A DNA stretch of 64,000 bases from Escherichia phage SUT_E520. Position 1 is the first letter of the stretch, and each line of letters begins with the position of its first letter. Shown piece by piece: positions 34,348-51,469 of this stretch. The stretch lies in the sequence record OQ990040. One strand, 5' to 3'. The notes under the pieces were generated by a model that saw only the letters and a list, made by a program, of their open reading frames with translations, made no database searches and was not told the DNA's origin. The translations under genes were made by a program, and so were the position numbers.

Positions 34348-36784
34348 TTGAAAATCGCAGTAGTTGATAAAGCTCTAAATAACACTCGTTACGATAAACA
34401 TTTCCAGCTATACGGCGAGGAAGTTGATGTATTTCATATGTGTAACGAGAAGTTATCTGGTCGTTTGCTTAAAAAGCACATTACTATTGGAACACCAGAA
34501 AATCCATTTGATCCGAATGATTACGATTTTGTTATACTAGTAGGTGCTGAACCTTTCCTGTATTTCGCAGGTAAGAAAGGCATTGGTGACTATACTGGTA
34601 AACGTGTAGAATATAATGGATATGCTAACTGGATTGCAAGTATCAGCCCAGCCCAGTTACACTTTAAGCCTGAAATGAAACCAGTTTTCGATGCAACAGT
34701 AGAGAATATCCACGATATTATCAATGGTCGTGAAAAGATTGCAAAAGCTGGTGATTACCGTCCTATTACTGACCCTGATGAGGCGGAAGAATATATCAAG
34801 ATGGTGTATAATATGGTTATCGGACCTGTCGCATTCGACTCCGAAACCTCAGCACTATACTGTCGAGATGGTTATCTGCTTGGTGTTTCTATATCTCACC
34901 AAGAGTATCAGGGTGTATATATCGATTCTGATTGTCTCACAGAGGTTGCAGTATATTATCTCCAGAAAATTCTGGATAGTGAAAACCACACTATTGTTTT
35001 TCACAACTTGAAGTTTGATATGCACTTTTATAAGTACCATCTGGGACTTACTTTTGATAAAGCACATAAAGAACGCAGGCTCCATGATACAATGTTGCAG
35101 CATTATGTTCTAGATGAGCGTCGTGGTACTCATGGCTTGAAATCTCTAGCAATGAAGTATACCGATATGGGTGACTATGACTTTGAACTAGATAAGTTCA
35201 AAGATGATTACTGCAAAGCACATAAAATCAAGAAAGAAGATTTCACCTATGATTTAATTCCGTTTGATATTATGTGGCCTTACGCTGCAAAAGATACCGA
35301 TGCCACCATACGCTTGCACAACTTCTTCTTACCAAAAATTGAGAAGAATGAAAAACTTTGCAGTCTGTATTATGATGTTCTAATGCCTGGTTGTGTATTT
35401 CTCCAGCGTGTTGAGGATCGTGGTGTACCAATTTCTATTGATCGCTTGAAAGAAGCTCAGTATCAGTTAACTCATAATCTGAATAAAGCTCGTGAGAAAC
35501 TATATACTTATCCAGAAGTCGTTCAGCTAGAAAAAGATCAGAATGAAGCGTTTAATCCAAACTCTGTTAAGCAGCTACGTGTTCTTCTGTTTGATTATGT
35601 TGGCTTAACTCCAACAGGTAAATTGACGGATACTGGAGCAGACTCTACAGATGCAGAAGCTCTGAACGAACTGNNNNNNNNNNNNNNNNNNNNNNNNNNN
35701 NNNNNNNNNNNNNNNNNNNNNNNNNNNNNNNNNNNNNNNNNNNNNNNNNNNNNNNNNNNNNNNNNNNNNNNNNGGGTATCGTGTAATCGCATGGGACTTA
35801 ACAACTGCGGAAGTTTATTATGCTGCTGTTCTATCTGGGGATAGAAATATGCAACAGGTATTTATCAATATGAGAAATGAACCTGATAAATACCCGGACT
35901 TCCACTCTAACATCGCACACATGGTATTTAAACTCCAATGCGAGCCTCGTGATGTTAAAAAGTTATTCCCAGCTCTGCGTCAGGCTGCTAAGGCAATTAC
36001 CTTCGGTATTTTGTATGGTTCTGGCCCAGCTAAAGTAGCTCATTCTGTTAACGAAGCTCTTCTGGAACAGGCTGCTAAGACAGGAGAACCGTTTGTTGAA
36101 TGTACTGTTGCGGATGCGAAGGACTATATCGAAACTTACTTCGGTCAGTTCCCACAGCTTAAGCGTTGGATTGATAAGTGCCACGATCAGATTAAGAATC
36201 ATGGATTTATCTATAGTCACTTTGGTCGTAAGCGTCGTCTGCACAATATCCACTCCGAAGACCGTGGTGTTCAGGGTGAAGAAATTCGTTCTGGATTTAA
36301 CGCAATCATTCAGTCTGCTTCCTCTGATAGCCTCCTTTTAGGTGCTGTAGATGCAGATAATGAGATCATTTCTCTTGGCCTAGAACAAGAGATGAAGATT
36401 GTTATGCTGGTTCATGACTCCGTGGTTGCTATTGTTCGTGAGGATTTGATCGACCAATACAATGAAATCCTGATTCGTAATATTCAGAAAGACCGTGGTA
36501 TCAGTATTCCTGGCTGTCCGATTGGTATTGATTCAGATTCTGAAGCTGGAGGTTCTCGTGACTATTCTTGTGGTAAGATGAAGAAACAGCACCCATCAAT
36601 CGCTTGTATTGATGATGATGAATATACTCGTTATGTCAAGAGTGTATTACTTGATGCAGAGTTCGAGTATAAGAAACTAGCTGCAATGGATAAAGAGCAT
36701 CCAGATCATAGCAAATACAAGGATGATAAGTTTATTGCTGTATGTAAAGATTTGGATAACGTAAGAAGGATTCTCGGTGCTTGA
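34348..36784 (+). CDS. DNA polymerase, family A, interrupted by the unresolved gap 35674..35773
   Basis: N-terminal part MKIAVVDKAL (TTG start) with 3'-5' exonuclease region, then after the N-run YRVIAWDLTTAEVYYAAVLSGD (motif A-like); frame shifts across the gap. Confidence 0.8.
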
Positions 36785-40905: not shown

Positions 40906-43255
40906 GACACTAAAATTTAGTAACGTTATGTCTTACGGTAAGGACATCGTAATTCATCTCGATAAGAATCCCGTTACTCAACTAATCGGGGGCAATGGGC
41001 TAGGGAAATCTACAATTGCTACTGTTATTGAAGAACTATTCTATAATAAGAACTCACGCGGTATTAAGAANNNNNNNNNNNNNNNNNNNNNNNNNNNNNN
41101 NNNNNNNNNNNNNNNNNNNNNNNNNNNNNNNNNNNNNNNNNNNNNNNNNNNNNNNNNNNNNNNNNNNNNNAATGGGCTAGGGAAATCTACAATTGCTACT
41201 GTTATTGAAGAACTATTCTATAATAAGAACTCACGCGGTATTAAGAAAGATGCTCTGTTCTCTTGGTCTTCTCCGAAAAAAGAATACGATATGCACGCTT
41301 ATTTCTCGAAAGATGAGGATGAGTATGAACTGCATAAAGTAGTTAAGTCAACTGCTAAAGTAACTCTTATTAAGAATGGGGAAGATATTAGTGGACACAC
41401 GGCAACCCAAACATACAAGATGATTGAAGAAATTATGGGTGGTGACTTCCAAACATTCACCAAACTGATTTATCAATCGGTGGGCTCCAATCTAGACTTT
41501 CTAAAAGCAACGGATGCAACACGTAAGGCTTTTCTTGTTAACTTGTTCAATCAAGAACAGTATAAAGAAATGTCAGAAACTATTAAGGCTGACCGTAAAG
41601 AAATAGCAAATACCTTAAACAATTTGCAAGGCCAAATGGCTGTAATTACGAAAATCCTTAATGGAAAGAATAATCTAGGAACTCTACAGGAACCTGTAGA
41701 AGTACCGGAGTTTGATGAAGAACCATTAGCACAAGAACTTACTGAATCGAAAATTAAGGCGGCATTAGCCAAGTCTCAAGAGGCTAATATTACTAAATTG
41801 CGTAATTTGGACAAAGCTGTACAAGTTGCCGAACAATCTTTCGAACCTTTCAAAAATTTACCCGCGCCCACCGACCAAAACGAAGAGATCTCAAGTGTTA
41901 CGCGTGACCTAACGATTGTGACCTCACGTGCTGGTGAAGTTAAGAAACGTTATCAGAAGTTCAAGCAAGAGGCTTCAAATACTGAATGTCCTACTTGTGG
42001 TACTCATCTGGANNNNNNNNNNNNNNNNNNNNNNNNNNNNNNNNNNNNNNNNNNNNNNNNNNNNNNNNNNNNNNNNNNNNNNNNNNNNNNNNNNNNNNNN
42101 NNNNNNNNNNNNGAAGTTAAGAAACGTTATCAGAAGTTCAAGCAAGAGGCTTCAAATACTGAATGTCCTACTTGTGGTACTCATCTGGATACAACTGCCG
42201 CTCAAAAAGCAATGGATATGGCTAGAACAGAATATGATCCTCTGTTCAAAGAGAAGCAATCTCTTGAAGCTAAGCTAGAACAGTTGAGGAAAGAACAACT
42301 TGAGTACGTTGCGTATATTAGAGCAAAGGATGCCTTGGATAAAGCAGTGGTAGCTAGGGACGAGTTCAAAAATTCAATGAGTGATGCTTCTTTTGAAGAA
42401 CTCAATGTGCAAATCCTACAGGTGCAAATCCGACAATTAGAACAGGAAATCGCTGATGGNNNNNNNNNNNNNNNNNNNNNNNNNNNNNNNNNNNNNNNNN
42501 NNNNNNNNNNNNNNNNNNNNNNNNNNNNNNNNNNNNNNNNNNNNNNNNNNNNNNNNNNNGATGCTTCTTTTGAAGAACTCAATGTGCAAATCCTACAGGT
42601 GCAAATCCGACAATTAGAACAGGAAATCGCTGATGGACGTTCTAAGGTTGCAATTGCCAAAGAGCATAATGCAAATGTCGAATTAGCCAATGCAAAATAT
42701 AAAGCGAAACTAGAACAGATTGAGAAAGCTGAAGCAGAAATGTCCGAGATTACTTCCAAATTAAATGAAGTATCAGAAGCTGTTGCTGATCTCGATATTC
42801 TGATTGCTGCATTGAAGAATTTAGTAGGATATAAACTAGAGCATAGTGTGAAAGTATTTGAAGAACTAATTAATAAATACCTTTCTATTATGACTGGCGG
42901 TAAATTCGCACTTGGATTTGAACTTGATGAAACAAAATTACAAGTAGTAATCTTCAATGATGGAAATCGTACCAGTATGGAGAACTGCTCTACTGGTCAA
43001 CAGAGTCGAATTAACCTAGCAACCCTGTTAGCTATTCGGATGCTGTTAACATCTATTAGTAAAGTTAATATTAATCTTCTATTCCTTGATGAAGTAATTA
43101 GCTTTATTGATACGAAAGGACTTGACACTCTTGTTGAATTATTAAACGAGGAAGAAAGTCTAAATTCTATCATTGTTTCTCATGGGCATACGCATCCACT
43201 AGCTCATAAGATTACTGTCAAAAAAGATGCAGAAGGATTTTCCTACTTAGAATAA
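40886..43255 (+). CDS. SbcC/Rad50-like ATPase; contains three duplication/N-run artefacts
   Basis: Start MSKITIKTLKF overlaps the SbcD stop; Walker A GGNGLGKST, long coiled coil, C-terminal LLFLDEVISFIDTKG; real length about 612 aa after removing three 177-nt insertions. Confidence 0.7.
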   Translation: MSKITIKTLKFSNVMSYGKDIVIHLDKNPVTQLIGGNGLGKSTIATVIEELFYNKNSRGIKXXXXXXXXXXXXXXXXXXXXXXXXXXXXXXXXXXNGLGKSTIATVIEELFYNKNSRGIKKDALFSWSSPKKEYDMHAYFSKDEDEYELHKVVKSTAKVTLIKNGEDISGHTATQTYKMIEEIMGGDFQTFTKLIYQSVGSNLDFLKATDATRKAFLVNLFNQEQYKEMSETIKADRKEIANTLNNLQGQMAVITKILNGKNNLGTLQEPVEVPEFDEEPLAQELTESKIKAALAKSQEANITKLRNLDKAVQVAEQSFEPFKNLPAPTDQNEEISSVTRDLTIVTSRAGEVKKRYQKFKQEASNTECPTCGTHLXXXXXXXXXXXXXXXXXXXXXXXXXXXXXXXXXXEVKKRYQKFKQEASNTECPTCGTHLDTTAAQKAMDMARTEYDPLFKEKQSLEAKLEQLRKEQLEYVAYIRAKDALDKAVVARDEFKNSMSDASFEELNVQILQVQIRQLEQEIADXXXXXXXXXXXXXXXXXXXXXXXXXXXXXXXXXXDASFEELNVQILQVQIRQLEQEIADGRSKVAIAKEHNANVELANAKYKAKLEQIEKAEAEMSEITSKLNEVSEAVADLDILIAALKNLVGYKLEHSVKVFEELINKYLSIMTGGKFALGFELDETKLQVVIFNDGNRTSMENCSTGQQSRINLATLLAIRMLLTSISKVNINLLFLDEVISFIDTKGLDTLVELLNEEESLNSIIVSHGHTHPLAHKITVKKDAEGFSYLE

Positions 43256-43258
43256 AAC

Positions 43259-43918
43259 ATGGCTGTAGATAGTAGAGAGAAAGGTAAACGTGGTGAATAT
43301 CAGGTAAGAGATATTCTACGTGAGCGTACAGGTCTTGAGTGGGAACGTGTTCCTGGCTCTGGTGCTTTTGGCCAGAGCCACGGACTGAAAGGTGACATCT
43401 ANNNNNNNNNNNNNNNNNNNNNNNNNNNNNNNNNNNNNNNNNNNNNNNNNNNNNNNNNNNNNNNNNNNNNNNNNNNNNNNNNNNNNNNNNNNNNNNNNNN
43501 NCGTACAGGTCTTGAGTGGGAACGTGTTCCTGGCTCTGGTGCTTTTGGCCAGAGCCACGGACTGAAAGGTGACATCTACCTTCCACCACAAAGCGGACAC
43601 ATTAGTAAATACTGCTTCGAAGTTAAGTGGTATAAAGATGATAATATATCAAGTAATTTATTTAATGTTGGTGAATCCACTCTAGAGAAGTGGTGGCAGC
43701 AGTGCTCACGTGAAGGTGAGCAGATGAACTCCAAACCTGCATTAATATTCAAAAAAGACAGAGGACAGTGGTTAATAGCTTTGGATAGCTCAGACCCAAT
43801 GGTTGACAACTTAATGAGTCGTACCCATATGGTGTTAAATAAGAAAGACATGGAAATCGTAATTGGTTTATTTGAACCGTGGCTACATCATGCATCTGTT
43901 GAGGACTTAATTAAATAA
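43259..43918 (+). CDS. hypothetical protein (possible nuclease fold); contains one duplication/N-run artefact
   Basis: Real length about 160 aa; GKRGEYQVRDIL...GDIY...EVKW pattern is only suggestive. Confidence 0.45.
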   Translation: MAVDSREKGKRGEYQVRDILRERTGLEWERVPGSGAFGQSHGLKGDIXXXXXXXXXXXXXXXXXXXXXXXXXXXXXXXXXXRTGLEWERVPGSGAFGQSHGLKGDIYLPPQSGHISKYCFEVKWYKDDNISSNLFNVGESTLEKWWQQCSREGEQMNSKPALIFKKDRGQWLIALDSSDPMVDNLMSRTHMVLNKKDMEIVIGLFEPWLHHASVEDLIK

Positions 43919-44970
43919 TGAGTAAATCCTGGGGAAAATTTATTGAAGAAGAGGAAGCTGAAATGGCTTCCCGTCGTAACCTAATGATTGTCGATGGAAC
44001 TAACTTAGGCTTTCGCTTCAAACATAACAACAGTAAAAAACCATTTGCCTCAAGTTATGTTTCCACTATTCAGTCTCTAGCAAAATCTTATTCTGCTAGA
44101 ACTACAATAGTTTTAGGAGATAAGGGGAAGTCTGCATTCCGCTTAGAGCATTTACCTGAGTATAAGGGTAATCGAGATGAGAAATACTCTCAGCGTACGG
44201 AAGAGGAGAAAGCGTTAGATGAGCAGTTCTTCGAGTATTTGAAAGATGCTTTCGAGTTATGTGAAACTACATTCCCAACTTTCACTATTCGGGGTGTAGA
44301 AGCAGATGATATGGCNNNNNNNNNNNNNNNNNNNNNNNNNNNNNNNNNNNNNNNNNNNNNNNNNNNNNNNNNNNNNNNNNNNNNNNNNNNNNNNNNNNNN
44401 NNNNNNNNNNNNNNNTTGAAAGATGCTTTCGAGTTATGTGAAACTACATTCCCAACTTTCACTATTCGGGGTGTAGAAGCAGATGATATGGCAGCTTATA
44501 TTGTTAAACTGATCGGGCATCTATATGATCACGTTTGGCTGATTTCTACTGATGGTGACTGGGATACTTTATTAACTGATAAAGTATCTCGCTTCTCTTT
44601 CACAACACGTCGTGAATACCATCTTCGTGATATGTATGAGCATCATAATGTTGACGATGTAGAGCAGTTTATCTCCCTGAAAGCAATTATGGGTGATTTA
44701 GGGGATAATATCCGAGGTGTTGAAGGTATTGGGGCAAAGCGCGGGTATAATATTATTCGTGAATTTGGTAACGTTCTGGATATTATTGATCAGCTTCCAC
44801 TGCCTGGAAAACAGAAATATATACAGAATTTAAATGCTTCGGAAGAATTGCTTTATCGAAACCTAATTCTGGTTGATTTACCTACCTACTGTGTGGATGC
44901 TATTGCTGCTGTAGGTCAAGATGTATTAGATAAATTTACAAAAGATATTTTGGAGATTGCAGAACAATGA
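43918..44970 (+). CDS. flap endonuclease / 5'-3' exonuclease; contains one duplication/N-run artefact
   Basis: MSKSWGKFIEEEEAEMASRRNLMIVDGTNLGFRF N-terminus and H3TH region GDLGDNIRGVEGIGAKRG; about 291 aa after removing the 177-nt artefact. Confidence 0.85.
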   Translation: MSKSWGKFIEEEEAEMASRRNLMIVDGTNLGFRFKHNNSKKPFASSYVSTIQSLAKSYSARTTIVLGDKGKSAFRLEHLPEYKGNRDEKYSQRTEEEKALDEQFFEYLKDAFELCETTFPTFTIRGVEADDMXXXXXXXXXXXXXXXXXXXXXXXXXXXXXXXXXXLKDAFELCETTFPTFTIRGVEADDMAAYIVKLIGHLYDHVWLISTDGDWDTLLTDKVSRFSFTTRREYHLRDMYEHHNVDDVEQFISLKAIMGDLGDNIRGVEGIGAKRGYNIIREFGNVLDIIDQLPLPGKQKYIQNLNASEELLYRNLILVDLPTYCVDAIAAVGQDVLDKFTKDILEIAEQ

Positions 44971-45642: not shown

Positions 45643-45680
45643 AAAAACCCCGGTGGATTTTGTCCACCGGGGTTTCTTTG
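45643..45680. terminator. bidirectional intrinsic terminator between the early plus block and the late minus block
   Basis: 9-bp hairpin CCCCGGTGG...CCACCGGGG flanked by an A-run upstream and a T-run downstream. Confidence 0.75.
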
Positions 45681-45695
45681 TACTATGTATATGTA

Positions 45696-48464
45696 CTATG
45701 AGTTATCTGGCTTAATAAGCTCGCTAACAAGTTTCTTCAGTTCGGTTAATTCTTGCTCAAGTTTGTTAACTTTATCAGCTTGATAACGAAATGCGCAAGC
45801 TAGATCTGCCATAATGACGTTGTTATCAAGTGCTAATGTGTCATCTGCTTTGTCAACAACAATTTGGCGGTCTACATATTCTTCACCGTCATCGTTAACA
45901 CCTATAACATCTGCAAAAATATCTCCACCAGGAATTAATTTTACATATTCCGGGTCTATTTTTAGAAGGTCTTGGGCTATTAAGCCAAATCGCTGTATGT
46001 TGCTTCCATTGTATTTAAACATTGTCGGAAGCCACTGCATAACGCGATCATAGCTTTCTTTTCCATCTGTATAGATTATATCGTGCTTTAAATCTCTGTC
46101 AGAGTTAGCGGCCTTTTGAAAAATGAAGTTTCCATTTGATGACCATGTGGTTATATCGTTTGAGGCTGGTTGAAACTGGAAGTTACAGAAAAAATTACCA
46201 TCACCACGAAGTCTTAACGAGCAAAAAGGCCAAGCATTATTTCCCTGTGGGATAAGACCCCAAGTTGCACGAATTGGATAACCACCAGTTGATTGTGTAC
46301 CCCATGAAAGGCCAGGCGCCCATCCACCATCATTGTTAGGAATAATCTCGCCCCAAACAAGAGCATTACCCCAATAGTTAGGATCATCCCAGCCCATTTG
46401 TTGGGTTTTGCCAGTGTATTGAGCAGAATGAGTTCTGCCGTCAGGGTAAAACTTGTGCATATAGGACTGTATCCCTGCTTGATACAATTCTATTCCAAAA
46501 GATTCAACGTGTGTGTCGCCTCTTCTGATTAAACCAGCGATAGCGTAATCGTCATACCAGTTGTAACGACTTACACCAGTCCATGTGTTTATTGGTGGAT
46601 TCATGATTGAGAATAGTTGTGACGCATTGCGTTCATTCCCGTCTGCATAAATACCAGCCCCAGGAGCTAAGGAAATACTTTTCGCTCCCGAAAAAGTACC
46701 ATTTTCATTAAACTGATAATACTGTGCTAACCCATTATGAAATACGCCTATTGTATGCTTTCCTACGCCTACTTGAGTCTCAAAATACGACTGAGAAGAA
46801 CCAATATCTTCGCCTTGGGTATTCTTTAGTTTTGAATGGTATATACCTGCGTTTGCAGTAACTGCATTTTCCGTTTCATTTTCAACATTAAGACTAAGGA
46901 ACTTTGGCGCATGTTTCTCACCAAGCCCTATATTATTTCTGATACCATTCGCATCCTTAGCACCTGTACCACCAAATTGAATACCTAGTGGTAGCCATTG
47001 ATCGGTGGTAGCATCATAAACGCCCCAATGATCCCCGTCAGCTGGAATGGTTAGATACTTGTTTTTATTTGGAGAATATAAAACTGTTTCTACAGAATTC
47101 TGAAACAGCCTATCAACTCCTAAATTATATCTAGCACCTTCAGGAGTATCTGCTCCTGTACCCCCAGCCGCAGTTGATAATGGAAGAGTTTCCCATGAAA
47201 TTCCGTCACCTGTTGCATTTCTCTGAAGTACAATAAGACCATCATCTCTAATAACAAATCTATATAATCTATTATGTGAATATAAAAAAGTATGAACCCC
47301 ATCTTGCACAAGTGAGTCTATAAGGAGTGTCTGACGAGAAGCATTGATATCCAACAGATCTGAAAGATTATTTTCTTTTAATAACGATTTACTAATGATA
47401 CCTTCAGCTTTTCCAGCAGCCACTTCCGCGCGCCCAGCGTCTGTAGATGCGCTTTGTGCGCTACCAGCAGCATTGCTAGCTTGTTGTCCTGCTTCGATAG
47501 CGCTATTGCTTGCTTGTGCAGCGGAAGCAGCAGCAGCATCTTTTAGCGTGGTAGTTTCGGACACAGCAGCGTCCTTAATTCCCTGTGTGTCTATTTTTAG
47601 CTGCTCAACGTCTGATTTTAAAGCTACTGTCTCTGCTACTGCAGTATCCTTAATACCTTGTGTATCTATTTTTAGCTGTTCAACATCTGATTTTAAGCCT
47701 TGAATAGTAGTTACTGATTGGCTAGCTGAGGCTGCGGAATGGGCTGCATTGGTTTCACTAGTTTTTGCATTGGTTTCACTAGTTTTTGCATTGGTTTCAC
47801 TAGCTTTTGCATTAGTTTCCGAGGTTTTTGCAGCGGATGCTGATGCGGCGGCTTGTGCAGAGAATATTTCTGCCCCATCTCTATAGCCTTTAGAATCCGA
47901 AGCAGAAGCAGCAGCATTAGTTTCACTAGCCTTTGCCTTATCTTCACTAGTCTTTGCTGCAATAGCAGAAGCAGCAGCATTAGTTTCACTAGCCTTTGCC
48001 TTATCTTCGCTAGCCTTTGCATTAGTCTCACTAGTTTTTGCGTTAGTCTCACTAGTTTTTGCATTAGTTTCACTAGCCTTTGCCTTATCTTCGCTAGTTT
48101 TAGCATTAGTCTCAGATATTTTAGCTGCAGCTGCTGATTCCTCCGATTTAGTAGCTGATGCAGCAGATTGAGTAGCAGATGTAGCGGACTGAGTGGCAGA
48201 GGCTTCAGAAGCTCCAGCAGAAATAGCAGCTTCCTGTTCAGAGTTCTTAGCATTAAGCTCCGAAGTTTTAGCCGCTATCTCAGAATCTTTTGCAGCTGCA
48301 GCAGACTTAGCTGCAGCCTCAATAGAAGATACTAACTCACTTGCAGTAATAGAGCTAATAGAATTACCTAGAGTTACTGTATATCTAGGAAACTTACTAG
48401 CAGTAGCTTTAGTATCATCAATATTTAATATTTGTTGTACAATAATTTTAGTAGTTACTGCCAT
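45696..48464 (-). CDS. L-shaped tail fibre protein (pb1-like) with C-terminal intramolecular chaperone (peptidase S74-like)
   Basis: 922 aa; Ala/Ser/Thr-rich repeats (KTSETNA units), C-terminal block SDRDLKHDIIYTDGKESYDRVMQWLPTMFKYNGSNIQRFGLIAQDLLKIDPEYV. Confidence 0.7.
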   Translation of the reverse strand: MAVTTKIIVQQILNIDDTKATASKFPRYTVTLGNSISSITASELVSSIEAAAKSAAAAKDSEIAAKTSELNAKNSEQEAAISAGASEASATQSATSATQSAASATKSEESAAAAKISETNAKTSEDKAKASETNAKTSETNAKTSETNAKASEDKAKASETNAAASAIAAKTSEDKAKASETNAAASASDSKGYRDGAEIFSAQAAASASAAKTSETNAKASETNAKTSETNAKTSETNAAHSAASASQSVTTIQGLKSDVEQLKIDTQGIKDTAVAETVALKSDVEQLKIDTQGIKDAAVSETTTLKDAAAASAAQASNSAIEAGQQASNAAGSAQSASTDAGRAEVAAGKAEGIISKSLLKENNLSDLLDINASRQTLLIDSLVQDGVHTFLYSHNRLYRFVIRDDGLIVLQRNATGDGISWETLPLSTAAGGTGADTPEGARYNLGVDRLFQNSVETVLYSPNKNKYLTIPADGDHWGVYDATTDQWLPLGIQFGGTGAKDANGIRNNIGLGEKHAPKFLSLNVENETENAVTANAGIYHSKLKNTQGEDIGSSQSYFETQVGVGKHTIGVFHNGLAQYYQFNENGTFSGAKSISLAPGAGIYADGNERNASQLFSIMNPPINTWTGVSRYNWYDDYAIAGLIRRGDTHVESFGIELYQAGIQSYMHKFYPDGRTHSAQYTGKTQQMGWDDPNYWGNALVWGEIIPNNDGGWAPGLSWGTQSTGGYPIRATWGLIPQGNNAWPFCSLRLRGDGNFFCNFQFQPASNDITTWSSNGNFIFQKAANSDRDLKHDIIYTDGKESYDRVMQWLPTMFKYNGSNIQRFGLIAQDLLKIDPEYVKLIPGGDIFADVIGVNDDGEEYVDRQIVVDKADDTLALDNNVIMADLACAFRYQADKVNKLEQELTELKKLVSELIKPDNS
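47745..48125. repeat. tandem 21-bp repeats (plus a roughly 63-bp direct duplication near 47560..47700) within the tail-fibre gene
   Basis: Units like GCATTGGTTTCACTAGTTTTT repeated with variants, encoding KTSETNA-type heptads. Confidence 0.7.
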
Positions 48465-48886
48465 TATTTAGTTACCCCATCACTGATAAATACTTTACCC
48501 TCCATTATACGAAAGGAGCTAATTGCAGATCCTATAACATCTCTAGTCATAATTATATCATAGTATCCTGCGAATCGCTGACGAGGGTTATATTTATCTC
48601 TATCTTTAGATGCTCTAGCCCCTATATTTTCCACAGATTCTACTGGCAAACTTATAGCTACAGCCCCTTGAGCAGCATCAATAATATTAGTAGTAAAGGA
48701 TGCTAATATCTCCGCATTCTCATCTAGGCTATTTTTTATAGTACCCCTTAGAGAATACCCGGTTAAGTTAACGGGGGTATTTGTAGGTGGATAAGTACTA
48801 TCATCAACATCTAAGAACTGCATCATTAAACCATATGGTACTTTCTCATCTATTACTAAATCTATAACTCTATTTTCAGTACTCAT
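48464..48886 (-). CDS. putative tail collar protein (T5 p132-like)
   Basis: 140-aa ORF between the fibre and baseplate genes; size and position match T5 p132. Confidence 0.45.
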
Positions 48887-48889
48887 TAT

Positions 48890-51469
48890 TTACCTTATAT
48901 GGATGTACCCGTTTTGCAGGTCTATCTTCATTCTGTAATAGGCTTCCGGNNNNNNNNNNNNNNNNNNNNNNNNNNNNNNNNNNNNNNNNNNNNNNNNNNN
49001 NNNNNNNNNNNNNNNNNNNNNNNNNNNNNNNNNNNNNNNNNNNNNNNNNACCATTGCTGGGTTAACCCAACCGGAACCATTCCATTGACGAGTAAATGCA
49101 GATTGCGGAGCATTACTATTAAACTCTGTCAATACATCATATCTAACTGGAGGACTACCAAAGTTATTCTGGAAGAAGGCATTAGCCTGCCCATCATCCC
49201 AACCACCAAGACCAGGAATACCTAAGGAATACATTCCAGGACCACGTTGTCCATCATGTCCTATAGTACCTTCAGTACCACTCCACTGAACTACATCAGA
49301 CCAGCTAGTACCTGCAAGTAGCTTATTAGTAACTGGGTCAAGTGTACCCGTAGTCGCATAGATATTTTGTGTCATATCTGTACGATTAGGTGGAGTTTTT
49401 GACCAACCAGGAGGCGGATAATCTTGTTCTAGTGGCTTTGCTGGAAGTGCAGTTGATATCTTATAAACAAATACTGTTTGCTTGCCCTGTATACCTGTTT
49501 GGATATCTACATCGCCATTTGGTGTTCCAATTACTACTCCACTAGAAATACGTAGTACATCACCATCATAACGAATCCACTGTGTGGCATTACCAATGTC
49601 TAACTTAGCTTTGGCAGAGGTATTATCCATGCCCATCCAAATACCGGAGTTATTATCCCCCCAAGATTTACCTTGAGTGTAAATTGCTGGATTATCCTTA
49701 CCGGATAAGTTAGTCATGATAAAATTCGCAGCATTAATATCTCTAGTAATTACTTTACCATCAACGTTAACAACACGGTTTATAGGATCAAAAGAAATAG
49801 GTGCTTTTCCCTCTTCATCTAGCAGACCAATGTTAATAGCACCAGTAGCTGCATCGATTAAGAATGTCTGTCTCCAGATTTCTCCATCTTTCATGCTGCC
49901 CTTAATAAAGGCATAGTTAACATCAATACCAGTCTCATTGACAAAGCTGTTATCTAGAGGAGTATCTTCATTCAATATAAATGTTACAGGAGCTGATTCT
50001 GTTATATCTTGTTTATTTGGTCCCCAGGCAATTGATGATACCTTAAAGGTATGTTCAACTTTCCATGGGAATGATATAATTGTTGCAGCTCTGGCAGCAC
50101 CAACGTTTATCTTTTGNNNNNNNNNNNNNNNNNNNNNNNNNNNNNNNNNNNNNNNNNNNNNNNNNNNNNNNNNNNNNNNNNNNNNNNNNNNNNNNNNNNN
50201 NNNNNNNNNNNNNNNNACCTTAAAGGTATGTTCAACTTTCCATGGGAATGATATAATTGTTGCAGCTCTGGCAGCACCAACGTTTATCTTTTGAGCTTTA
50301 GCCCAGCCAGTCTTAGCGTATTCTTCAGAATTTATATATGTAACCAAGAACTCACGAACATTAGCACCACCACCGCGTTCCCAATCCCACTCAATTCTAA
50401 CATCATATCGTTCTTTACCATCAGCAATTCGTGCAGCTTTAAAAACAATATTGATAGGTGCAGTAGGAGGAACAAAATTATAAGCTACTGTTAAAATATT
50501 AGGGAATTCATAGTACCCAGAAGAATCAACTGTAACACCATCAGGCATAGTTACTTGACCAGATATTCTGATCTTATAATCTCCGATAGGAACTCCACCA
50601 AATTTAATAGTAGNNNNNNNNNNNNNNNNNNNNNNNNNNNNNNNNNNNNNNNNNNNNNNNNNNNNNNNNNNNNNNNNNNNNNNNNNNNNNNNNNNNNNNN
50701 NNNNNNNNNNNNNACCATCAGGCATAGTTACTTGACCAGATATTCTGATCTTATAATCTCCGATAGGAACTCCACCAAATTTAATAGTAGAACCTAAAGC
50801 CCCAATGTAATACTTAGTCCAAGGACTGTCTTCAGTAGCTGTACTTTTTAACTCAATAGTACAGTAGCTTGCTTCACCAGTTGTTTCTACGACAACTATC
50901 GGTGCACCTACCCCAACATCCACAGGTTCTGATTCAGATCTTGCTGCAACAATTATTGGCTTCTCTTTTGTCCTAAAGTTAGTCTCATTAGAGAGATTGA
51001 TACCAATCTTAGCCTCTAGCAGTTCAGAATCAATAATAGAGTCGTAGAAAGCCCCTTGAATCTCGTAAGAGGTTGAAGGGGTCAGGTTATTAATCATTAT
51101 GAAGAAAGTATCTATACCAGTATAATCACGTCTATCTATACTTTCTCCTGTCTTTAACCAAAAAGATCTACCAATAANNNNNNNNNNNNNNNNNNNNNNN
51201 NNNNNNNNNNNNNNNNNNNNNNNNNNNNNNNNNNNNNNNNNNNNNNNNNNNNNNNNNNNNNNNNNNNNNNNNNNNNNGAAGAAAGTATCTATACCAGTAT
51301 AATCACGTCTATCTATACTTTCTCCTGTCTTTAACCAAAAAGATCTACCAATAACGTCATAGTCAGTATATATAGAGTGCTGGACATATGCCATTGTATA
51401 TCCAGTCATTATACTATTTAAGACCATTTTGGCTGGTGCATTATTCGAAATCATTAAATGGATGCCCAC
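48890..51469 (-). CDS. tail tip / central fibre protein (T5 pb4-like); contains one unresolved gap and three duplication artefacts
   Basis: Large beta-rich ORF; real length roughly 650-690 aa once artefacts are removed; position matches pb4. Confidence 0.5.
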   Translation of the reverse strand: MGIHLMISNNAPAKMVLNSIMTGYTMAYVQHSIYTDYDVIGRSFWLKTGESIDRRDYTGIDTFFXXXXXXXXXXXXXXXXXXXXXXXXXXXXXXXXXXIGRSFWLKTGESIDRRDYTGIDTFFIMINNLTPSTSYEIQGAFYDSIIDSELLEAKIGINLSNETNFRTKEKPIIVAARSESEPVDVGVGAPIVVVETTGEASYCTIELKSTATEDSPWTKYYIGALGSTIKFGGVPIGDYKIRISGQVTMPDGXXXXXXXXXXXXXXXXXXXXXXXXXXXXXXXXXXTIKFGGVPIGDYKIRISGQVTMPDGVTVDSSGYYEFPNILTVAYNFVPPTAPINIVFKAARIADGKERYDVRIEWDWERGGGANVREFLVTYINSEEYAKTGWAKAQKINVGAARAATIISFPWKVEHTFKXXXXXXXXXXXXXXXXXXXXXXXXXXXXXXXXXXQKINVGAARAATIISFPWKVEHTFKVSSIAWGPNKQDITESAPVTFILNEDTPLDNSFVNETGIDVNYAFIKGSMKDGEIWRQTFLIDAATGAINIGLLDEEGKAPISFDPINRVVNVDGKVITRDINAANFIMTNLSGKDNPAIYTQGKSWGDNNSGIWMGMDNTSAKAKLDIGNATQWIRYDGDVLRISSGVVIGTPNGDVDIQTGIQGKQTVFVYKISTALPAKPLEQDYPPPGWSKTPPNRTDMTQNIYATTGTLDPVTNKLLAGTSWSDVVQWSGTEGTIGHDGQRGPGMYSLGIPGLGGWDDGQANAFFQNNFGSPPVRYDVLTEFNSNAPQSAFTRQWNGSGWVNPAMXXXXXXXXXXXXXXXXXXXXXXXXXXXXXXXXXXPEAYYRMKIDLQNGYIHIR

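Follow-up and report, generated by a model that had tools for sequence, protein, structure and literature searches.

What kind of fibre does the long gene beside the collar gene of Escherichia phage SUT_E520 encode, and how do its tandem DNA repeats and its C-terminal domain bear on the length, tip and maturation of that fibre? We address these questions within a window of 64,000 nucleotides (the whole stretch of record OQ990040 that was analysed). This window is genomic sequence of a Tequintavirus (T5-like). The 922-aa product is very probably a T5-type lateral, or L-shaped, tail fibre, made as a single polypeptide with exchangeable modules.

Gene identity and collar attachment

The gene, its neighbours and the segment of the product that is predicted to anchor it are as follows.

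45696..48464, minus strand: ltf, lateral (L-shaped) tail fibre precursor, 922 aa, 98.1 kDa (open reading frame, homologues and PHROG match)
48464..48886, minus strand: collar/fibre-attachment protein p132 (LtfC), 140 aa (Pfam PF23926 LtfC, E=1.6e-14)
45643..45677, unstranded: bidirectional intrinsic terminator between ltf and the convergent DUF7369/dut (14-15-pair stem, T-runs on both strands)
48345..48464, minus strand: aa 1-40, N-terminal anchor for collar-ring insertion (~80% identity to residues 1-40 of DT57C LtfA, PDB 8hqz_d)

Opening with ATG, the 922-codon frame lies immediately 3' of p132/LtfC, whose stop overlaps the ltf start codon at 48464, and is convergent with dut and the flap endonuclease gene. 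The gene order (pb4, collar p132/LtfC, ltf and next a terminator acting in both directions, with dut and flap endonuclease on its far side) is that of T5, where the equivalent position is annotated as an 'efficient bidirectional rho-independent terminator'. In T5, the 3' end of ltf has an antisense gene, T5.134; the antisense ORF at 45814..46053 of SUT_E520 showed no similarity to it. PHROG labels p132/LtfC as 'collar tail protein for L-shaped tail fibre attachment', and PHROG tail-fibre families match the ltf product (phrog_5481, E=5.8e-242), with phrog_24369 matching its N-terminus (E=5e-50). The N-terminus also matches DT57C LtfA (PDB 8hqz_d) over aa 1-196 with E=1.5e-34, and T5 pb1 is 52% identical over aa 1-227.

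Synteny and the N-terminal homology to both DT57C LtfA and T5 pb1 thus agree with the initial annotation, which had called the gene a 922-codon L-shaped tail fibre gene; the ORF does encode 922 aa. Its further description of the fibre as short holds only relative to T5, whose fibre has 1396 aa. T5-like ltf products in IMG/VR measure 698-1116 aa, so that 922 aa is mid-range for a family spanning 698-1396 aa, and the idea of an unusually short fibre was dropped.

Escherichia phages SUT_E1520 and SUT_E420 carry the ltf gene with 100% identity; in EC148 and T5_ev212 the figure is 99.7-99.9%. As side tail-fibre genes of T5-like coliphages go, it is an ordinary one, of a kind already known and with identical copies already in GenBank, and its identification matters little beyond annotation. 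In the SUT_E1520 record, ltf is listed as a 'hypothetical protein' and the fibre name sits on the collar gene, a mislabelling that could be corrected.

Among solved structures, the best match is DT57C LtfA (1076 aa, 8HQZ chain d), through aa 1-196 and a weak match at aa 751-910; pfam13884 forms the C-terminus of both proteins, and the distal domains are only remotely related. Both fibres appear to be built for attachment to the LtfC collar, with a coiled coil from about residue 40. In the DT57C structure, the N-terminal segment contributes beta-strands to the LtfC dodecamer, lying within its ring, and a three-helix coiled coil starts at T40 (PMC10713586). By analogy, aa 1-40 of the SUT_E520 product, which are unstructured in a single-sequence AF2 model, most likely thread into the dodecameric p132/LtfC collar.

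T5 pb1 (1396 aa) is alike in the position of its gene, after the collar gene and facing dut, and in its homologous N-terminus and Ala/Ser-rich heptad shaft; the SUT_E520 fibre is 474 aa shorter. We take PDB 4UW7 and 4UW8 to be the pb1 structures. No sequence or fold similarity was detected between the middle and distal parts of the two fibres, the pb1 bullet domain (residues 970-1263) included, so the polymannose O-antigen specificity of pb1 cannot be transferred to SUT_E520.

The repeat-encoded shaft

All of the DNA repeats fall within one segment of the fibre that is predicted to be helical and comprises the following features.

47373..48344, minus strand: aa 41-364, predicted alpha-helical shaft rich in Ala, Ser, Thr, Glu and Lys, holding all DNA repeats (AF2 helices, heptad register)
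47871..47897, minus strand: aa 190-198 (DSKGYRDGA), predicted inter-helix break and possible hinge (AF2)
47913..48122, minus strand: 21-bp tandem array 1, aa 115-184, KTSETNA / KASEDKA type (TRF, heptad count)
47745..47832, minus strand: 21-bp tandem array 2, heptads at aa 213-240, 91% DNA matches (TRF)
47901..48020, minus strand: 63-bp-period repeat (three heptads) nested in array 1 (TRF)
47547..47696, minus strand: tandem 75-bp (25-aa) duplication carrying KSDVEQLKIDTQGIKD twice, aa 257-306 (repeat family D5)

In the AF2 monomer model, aa 41-189 and aa 199-364 are helical (pLDDT mostly 75-90), and the stretch between them, aa 190-197/198, is non-helical with pLDDT below 50. The shaft is 27% Ala and 16% Ser, and a continuous xxSxxxA register runs through 30 heptads (aa 45-254), in which Ser fills position 3 in 28 cases and Ala position 7 in 24. 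From this pattern we infer a trimeric coiled coil: the two long helices, roughly 22 and 25 nm, would pack as a three-stranded coiled coil around a small Ala/Ser core. As for the break at aa 190-198, T5 pb1 lacks 14 residues there, and we do not claim it as the kink of the fibre's 'L'.

The repeats previously described as 21-bp units encoding KTSETNA-type heptads were recovered by TRF as two arrays. The first, at 47914-48108, has 9.3 copies of a 21-bp period with 68% matches and is also scored at periods of 42, 63 and 84 bp, out to 48114-48144 (scores 197-226); the second, at 47745-47832, has 4.2 copies with 91% matches (score 139). Heptads of the form K[TAI]SE[TD][NK]A number 13, at aa 115-184 and 213-240, far above chance. 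A direct duplication of roughly 63 bp had also been proposed for the peptide KSDVEQLKIDTQGIKD. The peptide is indeed present exactly twice (aa 258-273 and 283-298), but the underlying DNA repeats, 68 nt long and 82% identical (47554-47621 and 47629-47696), are spaced by 75 bp, or 25 codons, so the 63-bp figure is wrong for this duplication. A 63-bp period does occur separately at 47901-48020, where TRF finds 1.9 copies with 96% matches (score 226) encoding ASETNAAASAIAAKTSEDKAK.

The 21-, 63- and 75-bp repeats are most likely the nucleotide image of heptad, and probably also hendecad, periodicity. Orthologue lengths bear this pattern out and sustain the earlier suggestion that the repeats are hotspots for length variation: the differences consist of whole repeat units only (+7, +11 and +36 aa). 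VEc33 has gained 7 aa, MET_P1, VEc33 and OSYSP have 11 aa more each, and OSYSP has an additional 36 aa; the +11 and +36 insertions are located at the 75-bp duplication (aa 257-306). Moreover, runs of 7 and of 14 residues are among the gaps (22 positions) in the alignment with T5 pb1. Whole structural units are most likely gained or lost through slippage during replication or through unequal recombination of the repeats.

A more dynamic version of this reading, in which the arrays, instead of reflecting structural periodicity with indels only now and then, form a fast contingency locus whose frequent copy-number changes within a population tune fibre length to the host surface, seems unlikely. 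It would fit the restriction of every orthologue length difference to whole repeat units, the identity of more than 90% in DNA between some units (suggesting recent expansion or conversion) and a repeat-to-repeat conversion in EC148, where one heptad is converted with no change in length. Against it, eight records, drawn from several countries and diverging by as much as 7% in nucleotide sequence, all encode a product of exactly 922 aa, and such short, imperfect units (21 bp, 68-91% matches) make frequent slippage less likely.

The distal domain and the chaperone

Beyond the shaft, the product continues through two small modules into a presumed receptor-binding domain and a C-terminal chaperone.

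46920..47372, minus strand: aa 365-515, two tandem small beta-modules (AF2, slyngel alignment, PDB 7z47_D motif)
46104..46919, minus strand: aa 516-787, distal all-beta domain, presumed receptor-binding (AF2, conservation)
45793..46987, minus strand: aa 493-891, mosaic block common to a Drexlerviridae lateral tail fibre gene (blastn against slyngel)
45699..46103, minus strand: aa 788-922, intramolecular chaperone (Peptidase_S74), 135 aa, 15.4 kDa (Pfam PF13884)
46086..46103, minus strand: predicted autocleavage site N787-S788 with Ser/Lys dyad, S788-D-R-D-L-K793 (conservation, T5 alignment)

AF2 models aa 365-515 as two alike strand/helix modules, and the motif GGTGA...G.R.N.G closes each of them (aa 434-450 and 497-515). 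The single GGTGA module of slyngel aligns to both, and the motif matches repeated GGTGA segments in the tail fibre of PDB 7z47_D; the modules would join the shaft to the distal domain. The latter (aa 516-787) is all-beta in AF2 with pLDDT 80-94, is 96-100% conserved among orthologues, and belongs to a family found in 198 phage records of T5-like phages and Drexlerviridae. PDB fold searches gave no convincing solved-structure match for aa 516-787: Foldseek with the AF2 model of aa 360-922 returned no PDB hit at E<=1e-3, the top matches being beta-propellers with TM <0.13. Nor did the PDB fold searches bring up any S74 structure. In BFVD, every fold match of the ltf product is a phage tail fibre or an S74 protein.

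Over CDS nt 1478-2672, blastn aligns ltf to the fibre gene of the T1-like Salmonella phage slyngel at 91.5% DNA identity (86% in protein), and the Escherichia phages atuna and G29-2 show about 88% DNA identity over aa 493-891. On the strength of these alignments, the ltf gene is a mosaic. What the Drexlerviridae fibres (slyngel gp40, atuna and G29-2; ~731-736 aa) share with it is aa 493-891, namely the distal domain and most of the chaperone. They differ in having a virion anchor of their own type at the N-terminus, like the depolymerase N-terminus in PDB 7vyv, in lacking KTSETNA heptad arrays, in the number of GGTGA modules (one in slyngel, two in SUT_E520) and in the final about 30 aa. The common distal domain and chaperone point to clear module exchange between Demerecviridae and Drexlerviridae, a phenomenon already well documented.

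Fibres of the T5 type, according to the literature on T5 and DT57C, are seen as three kinked fibres on the virion and accelerate adsorption by binding O-antigen. The distal domain of the ltf product most likely binds a surface glycan, for example an O-antigen, which would speed reversible adsorption on smooth hosts. The view that this receptor-binding region sets host range captures part of the picture. In spot tests, SUT_E420 was positive and SUT_E1520 negative on O157:H7, with the reverse on O113:H21 (PMC10668671 Table 1); as their ltf genes are identical, the fibre is not the sole determinant of host range. T5-type fibres are, furthermore, dispensable on rough strains (PMC8594841). Several ltf carriers were isolated on O157:H7. 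The O157 O-antigen was considered as the ligand and rejected, given that SUT_E1520, with the identical gene, makes no spot on O157:H7 and that near-identical distal domains occur in phages from K-12 and Salmonella Enteritidis. A broader proposal would in our judgement probably not hold: that the shaft is an evolvable molecular ruler, its DNA repeats being in register with the coiled-coil periodicity (units of 7, 11 and 25 = 7+7+11 residues) so that slippage or unequal recombination alters the reach of the fibre stepwise with the fold kept and matches its length to O-antigen or capsule thickness, and that the distal domain, common to T5-like and T1-like phages, is an unsolved receptor-binding fold for a glycan.

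The resemblance of the C-terminus to a self-cleaving intramolecular chaperone, noted from the outset, is borne out by a PF13884 match at aa 788-842 that covers the full profile (1-58) with E=7.2e-8 and 33 bits, above the gathering cut-off of 22. None of S788, D789, R790 and K793 varies across 54 homologues, and S788...K793 aligns with S1264-DARL-K1269 of T5 pb1 at equal spacing. The T5 fibre likewise ends in an autoproteolytic chaperone with an S-x4-K motif, of 133 aa compared with 135 aa in SUT_E520; there, a Ser/Lys autocleavage mechanism has been described and the S1264A mutation blocks cleavage (PMC4690869). At pLDDT of only 46-78, AF2 gives the SUT_E520 region short helices together with a long beta-hairpin spanning aa 841-879; a helix at aa 881-917 closes the C-terminus. 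In this low-confidence monomer model, the hairpin and terminal helix fit the description of the T5 chaperone (PMC4690869), and the predicted hairpin is longer than in the chaperones of ABTNLsp4 and IrisVonRoten.

Shared with the endosialidase-type chaperone (PF13884) are the Ser/Lys dyad and the C-terminal position after a beta-structure, presumably trimeric in SUT_E520, and a terminal helix is predicted as well; the domain upstream is a fibre tip in SUT_E520, not a glycosidase tailspike. Carriers of this chaperone type include phi29/GA-1 gp12. The K1F endosialidase is named among the carriers of intramolecular chaperones (PMC4690869). Searches of PDB sequences recovered the T5 pb1 and K1F chaperones neither with phmmer on the chaperone region alone nor with a profile of the 54 homologues, whose top matches were to the Drexlerviridae N-terminal anchor, absent from the ltf product.

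The Peptidase_S74 domain would template trimer folding, after which a Ser788/Lys793-mediated cut of the N787-S788 bond would yield an 82.7 kDa mature subunit and a 15.4 kDa fragment. Self-cleavage at this site is what the dyad leads us to infer. That the domain is instead retained on the mature fibre as its distal tip appears quite improbable: the low model confidence over the chaperone would leave room for it, as would the upstream Arg/Asp 'folding sensor' of T5, which cannot be mapped by alignment (the alignment does not establish an R-G-D-G motif at aa 753-756, with G754 and D755 nearly invariant, as the equivalent of T5 Arg1250/Asp1239), yet the dyad Ser and Lys are invariant, the S74 match is above threshold, and the T5 domain, when left uncleaved, prevents receptor competition (PMC4690869).

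For engineering chimeric fibres in T5-like phages used for biocontrol (OSYSP, phiLLS and the SUT phages among them), useful landmarks are the boundaries between modules, at aa ~370 and at a GGTGA motif (aa ~493-497), and the predicted N787-S788 site.

Fibre gene number and integrity of the repeats

DT57C builds a branched fibre from two proteins, LtfA and LtfB (PMC10713586, PMC4728585), whereas SUT_E520 has one fibre gene. It is very improbable that the ltf product is an LtfA-type proximal subunit that needs a second fibre protein, LtfB, for its receptor, even though many T5-like phages (DT57C, IrisVonRoten) carry two or more fibre genes and the ltf N-terminus is closer to LtfA than to pb1. 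No further fibre gene follows ltf: the terminator comes 18 bp on, followed by DUF7369 and dut on the opposite strand. The product has its own distal domain and chaperone, and the LtfA-type proteins of IMG/VR that are most alike in the N-terminal shaft (783-816 aa) lack the S74 motif.

That the repeat arrays are assembly artefacts, produced by short-read collapse or expansion, is scarcely credible. The window is admittedly a gapped draft, with eleven gaps of 100 N, of which eight have 77-nt duplications at their flanks; ltf itself, however, contains no N-run, and neither its reading frame nor its heptad phase is broken. The array is base-for-base identical in SUT_E1520 and SUT_E420, 99.7-99.9% identical in T5_ev212 and EC148, and of equal length in MM-1, MM-2 and Elw. 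Such agreement between separate records, which come from Australia, Germany, the USA and Denmark among those whose origin was read, argues that the repeats are real.

Two further open frames overlap the repeat region.

47711..48253, minus strand: alternative-frame ORF, 180 aa (open frame in repeats)
47344..47703, plus strand: alternative-frame ORF, 119 aa (open frame in repeats)

We rejected these as by-products of the repeats, with next to no chance of being real genes: they are long, and Salmonella phage SA001 annotates the 180-aa frame as a CDS, but the frames are open where the repeats lie and translate into low-complexity repeat sequence, the SA001 call is due to a 44-bp duplication that frameshifts ltf, and all other records annotate a single fibre gene.

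Identity and setting of the lateral fibre gene

The 922-codon fibre gene of the initial annotation has the position and N-terminus of a T5-type lateral (L-shaped) tail fibre gene, here ltf, and on these two grounds its product is assigned to the T5/DT57C lateral tail fibre family and would work like its members, while lying outside the T5 pb1 receptor-domain family. Gene order is as in T5 (baseplate hub, pb4 straight fibre, 140-aa collar protein, ltf), and a terminator separates the late unit (ltf) from a convergent early unit (dut/DUF7369), with DUF7369, dUTPase and flap endonuclease beyond it on the opposite strand. T5 has a bidirectional terminator annotated at the equivalent position.

Features of the locus
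45696..48464, minus strand: ltf, ORF call of 922 codons
directly before ltf: collar protein, 140 aa (Pfam LtfC, PF23926)
45643-45677: strong bidirectional intrinsic terminator; its stem is 14-15 bp long and each strand has T-runs

In a nucleotide search, ltf matched its counterparts in Escherichia phages SUT_E1520 and SUT_E420 at every one of its 2769 nt (100%), and genes of equal length occur in T5_ev212 (99.9%), EC148 (99.7%), and MM-1, MM-2 and Elw (93-95%). All inspected records carrying an ltf match are Tequintavirus (T5-like) genomes. The sequence is already public, several records annotating 'tail fiber protein', and the features first flagged are textbook properties of lateral fibre genes, making the finding correct but ordinary and already known. 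The description of the fibre as 'short' fits only relative to T5 (1396 aa); 922 aa is not unusual among T5-like lateral fibres (698 to 1116 aa in IMG/VR).

A repetitive shaft and its length variation

The anchor (aa 1-40) lies in a stretch homologous to DT57C LtfA and T5 pb1: aa 1-196 match LtfA (PDB 8hqz_d, E=1.5e-34) and aa 1-227 are 52% identical to pb1. Cryo-EM of DT57C showed that the LtfA N-terminus contributes beta-strands to the dodecameric LtfC ring and that a trimeric helical bundle begins at T40 (PMC10713586). The shaft (aa 41-364) shows predicted helices and a heptad register; a single-sequence AF2 model has one helix spanning aa 41-189 and another spanning aa 199-364 (pLDDT mostly 75-90), separated by a break of low confidence (aa 190-198). 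Heptads run in phase from residue 45 to residue 254; of these 30, 28 carry Ser at position 3 and 24 carry Ala at position 7, and such 3-4 spacing is typical of a coiled-coil core of small residues. The shaft is probably a coiled coil of three strands, about 22 + 25 nm long.

Tandem Repeats Finder and a separate repeat finder both reported 21-bp arrays, bearing out the tandem repeats with KTSETNA-type heptads first noted; the two arrays encode 13 heptads, K[TAI]SE[TD][NK]A, at aa 115-184 and 213-240. The claimed duplication of roughly 63 bp was right in its peptide, KSDVEQLKIDTQGIKD, which occurs twice (aa 258-273 and 283-298), and wrong in its period, which is 75 bp; a true 63-bp repeat lies elsewhere.

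Repeats within ltf
47745-47832, minus strand: 21-bp tandem array, 4.2 copies, 91% matches
47914-48108, minus strand: 21-bp tandem array, 9.3 copies; alternatively 42-, 63- or 84-bp periods
47554-47621 and 47629-47696, minus strand: DNA repeat of KSDVEQLKIDTQGIKD, 68 nt, 82% identity, 75-bp spacing
47901-48020, minus strand: 63-bp-period repeat, 96% matches, distinct from the KSDVEQLKIDTQGIKD site

Copy numbers were compared in an alignment of seven close orthologues, in which all indels are whole repeat units within the arrays, thus supporting the proposal that the repeats are sites of length change, on an evolutionary scale. EC148, MM-1 and Elw have 922 aa, MET_P1_179_112 has 933 (+11, SAVSETQAIKDA), VEc33 940 (+7, a single heptad, and +11) and OSYSP 969 (+36 and +11). 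The unit sizes of 7, 11 and 25 (7+7+11) appear compatible with coiled-coil periodicities, and some gaps in the alignment with T5 pb1 are 7 or 14 residues long. In EC148, one KASEDKA heptad is converted to KTSETNA at unchanged length. Among close T5-like orthologues, the shaft repeats are 72-87% identical, against 94-100% conservation in the distal half. A fast 'contingency locus' is unlikely, because the length stays at exactly 922 aa in eight records that diverge by up to 7%. Assembly artefact is ruled out, as independent deposits carry the same array.

Distal module, mosaic structure and host range

Downstream of the shaft lie linker, distal domain and chaperone, partly shared with Drexlerviridae.

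Features of the distal half
46920-47372 (aa 365-515), minus strand: linker, two alike small beta-modules, each ending GGTGA...R.N.G
aa 516-787: distal domain, all-beta, AF2 pLDDT 80-94
aa 788-922: chaperone, Pfam Peptidase_S74, E=7.2e-8, exceeding the gathering score
45793-46987 (CDS nt 1478-2672, aa 493-891), minus strand: mosaic block, 91.5% identity to the slyngel lateral tail fibre gene

The C-terminus does resemble a chaperone domain, as initially proposed; profile and catalytic motif place it in the Peptidase_S74 family, with NS788DRDLK793HDI aligning with TS1264DARLK1269NDV of T5 pb1 and S788, D789, R790 and K793 invariant among 54 homologues. In pb1, the scissile Ser1264 is activated by Lys1269, and S1264A blocks cleavage (PMC4690869). 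The predicted cleavage of the ltf product would yield fragments of 82.7 kDa (aa 1-787) and 15.4 kDa. The AF2 secondary structure of this part (short helices, a beta-hairpin of ~39 residues and a terminal helix of 37) fits the published T5 chaperone description, at low confidence (pLDDT 46-78).

Salmonella phage ABTNLsp4 shares CDS nt 1-1110 (aa 1-370) at 92% identity before its fibre diverges completely, and nt 1-998 are 82% identical to IrisVonRoten LtfA. The mosaic block matches Salmonella phage slyngel (Drexlerviridae, Hanrivervirus, 51 kb) and, at ~88%, atuna, G29-2 and others. Its 5' junction, where high identity to the Drexlerviridae homologue begins, is the second GGTGA motif; the linker is an internal duplication of a ~70-aa beta-module present once in that homologue. 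The block holds the distal domain and most of its chaperone, and therefore both travel together. Remoter distal-domain relatives (27-45% identity) are spread over 198 phage records, both T5-like and T1-like; screening 5.8 billion proteins located them in enterobacterial prophage-like contigs as well.

Published work favours O-antigen as the structure bound by T5-type lateral fibres; it also shows that rough strains can be infected without them and that their highly variable locus may specify a fibre of one protein or of two (PMC4690869, PMC4728585, PMC8594841). The suggestion that the receptor-binding region would set host range tells only part of the story: SUT_E420 (OQ990039) and SUT_E1520 have identical ltf, whereas in spot tests O157:H7 is a host of SUT_E420 and negative for SUT_E1520, and O113:H21 the reverse (PMC10668671 Table 1). 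The fibre therefore cannot alone determine host range, and this difference must map outside ltf, e.g. to the pb5 receptor-binding protein or anti-defence genes.

Assembly and record observations

The window's draft assembly has eleven 100-N gaps, none inside ltf. Eight have exact 77-nt duplicated flanks (41071-41170, 42013-42112, 42460-42559, 43402-43501, 44316-44415, 50117-50216, 50614-50713, 51178-51277), suggesting that contigs sharing a terminal k-mer of 77 were linked by Ns; those at 35674, 39888 and 48950 have none. Gaps inflate ORFs: the flap endonuclease reads 350 aa, where SUT_E1520 has 876 nt (291 aa), and pb4 859 aa, compared with a 2058-nt gene.

The SUT_E1520 record (OQ885479, 5579-8769) names the 140-aa collar gene 'L-shaped tail fiber protein p132' and the true fibre gene 'hypothetical protein'. 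In the T5 reference (NC_005859, 12056-12480) the collar gene is split into T5.135/T5.136 (CDSs of 264 and 186 nt), whereas the window and other T5-like phages have a single 423-nt gene; the DT57C paper puts the split down to an erroneous frameshift in the sequence of T5. Salmonella phage vB_SalS_SA001 (MN445182, ~556-600) has a 44-bp tandem duplication after ltf nt 54 (~ window 48411) that frameshifts the gene, annotated as three fragments, one of them a repeat ORF in another frame; the record represents either a laboratory variant lacking fibres or an error of sequencing. A Drexlerviridae-type fibre module (88% identity) is present in five 49.9-kb 'Campylobacter phage' records (MG065643 and others), and a T5-like ltf (90%) in the 59.6-kb 'Aeromonas phage SD04' (MH230177); both host labels look questionable and could stem from contamination with coliphage or from misassignment.
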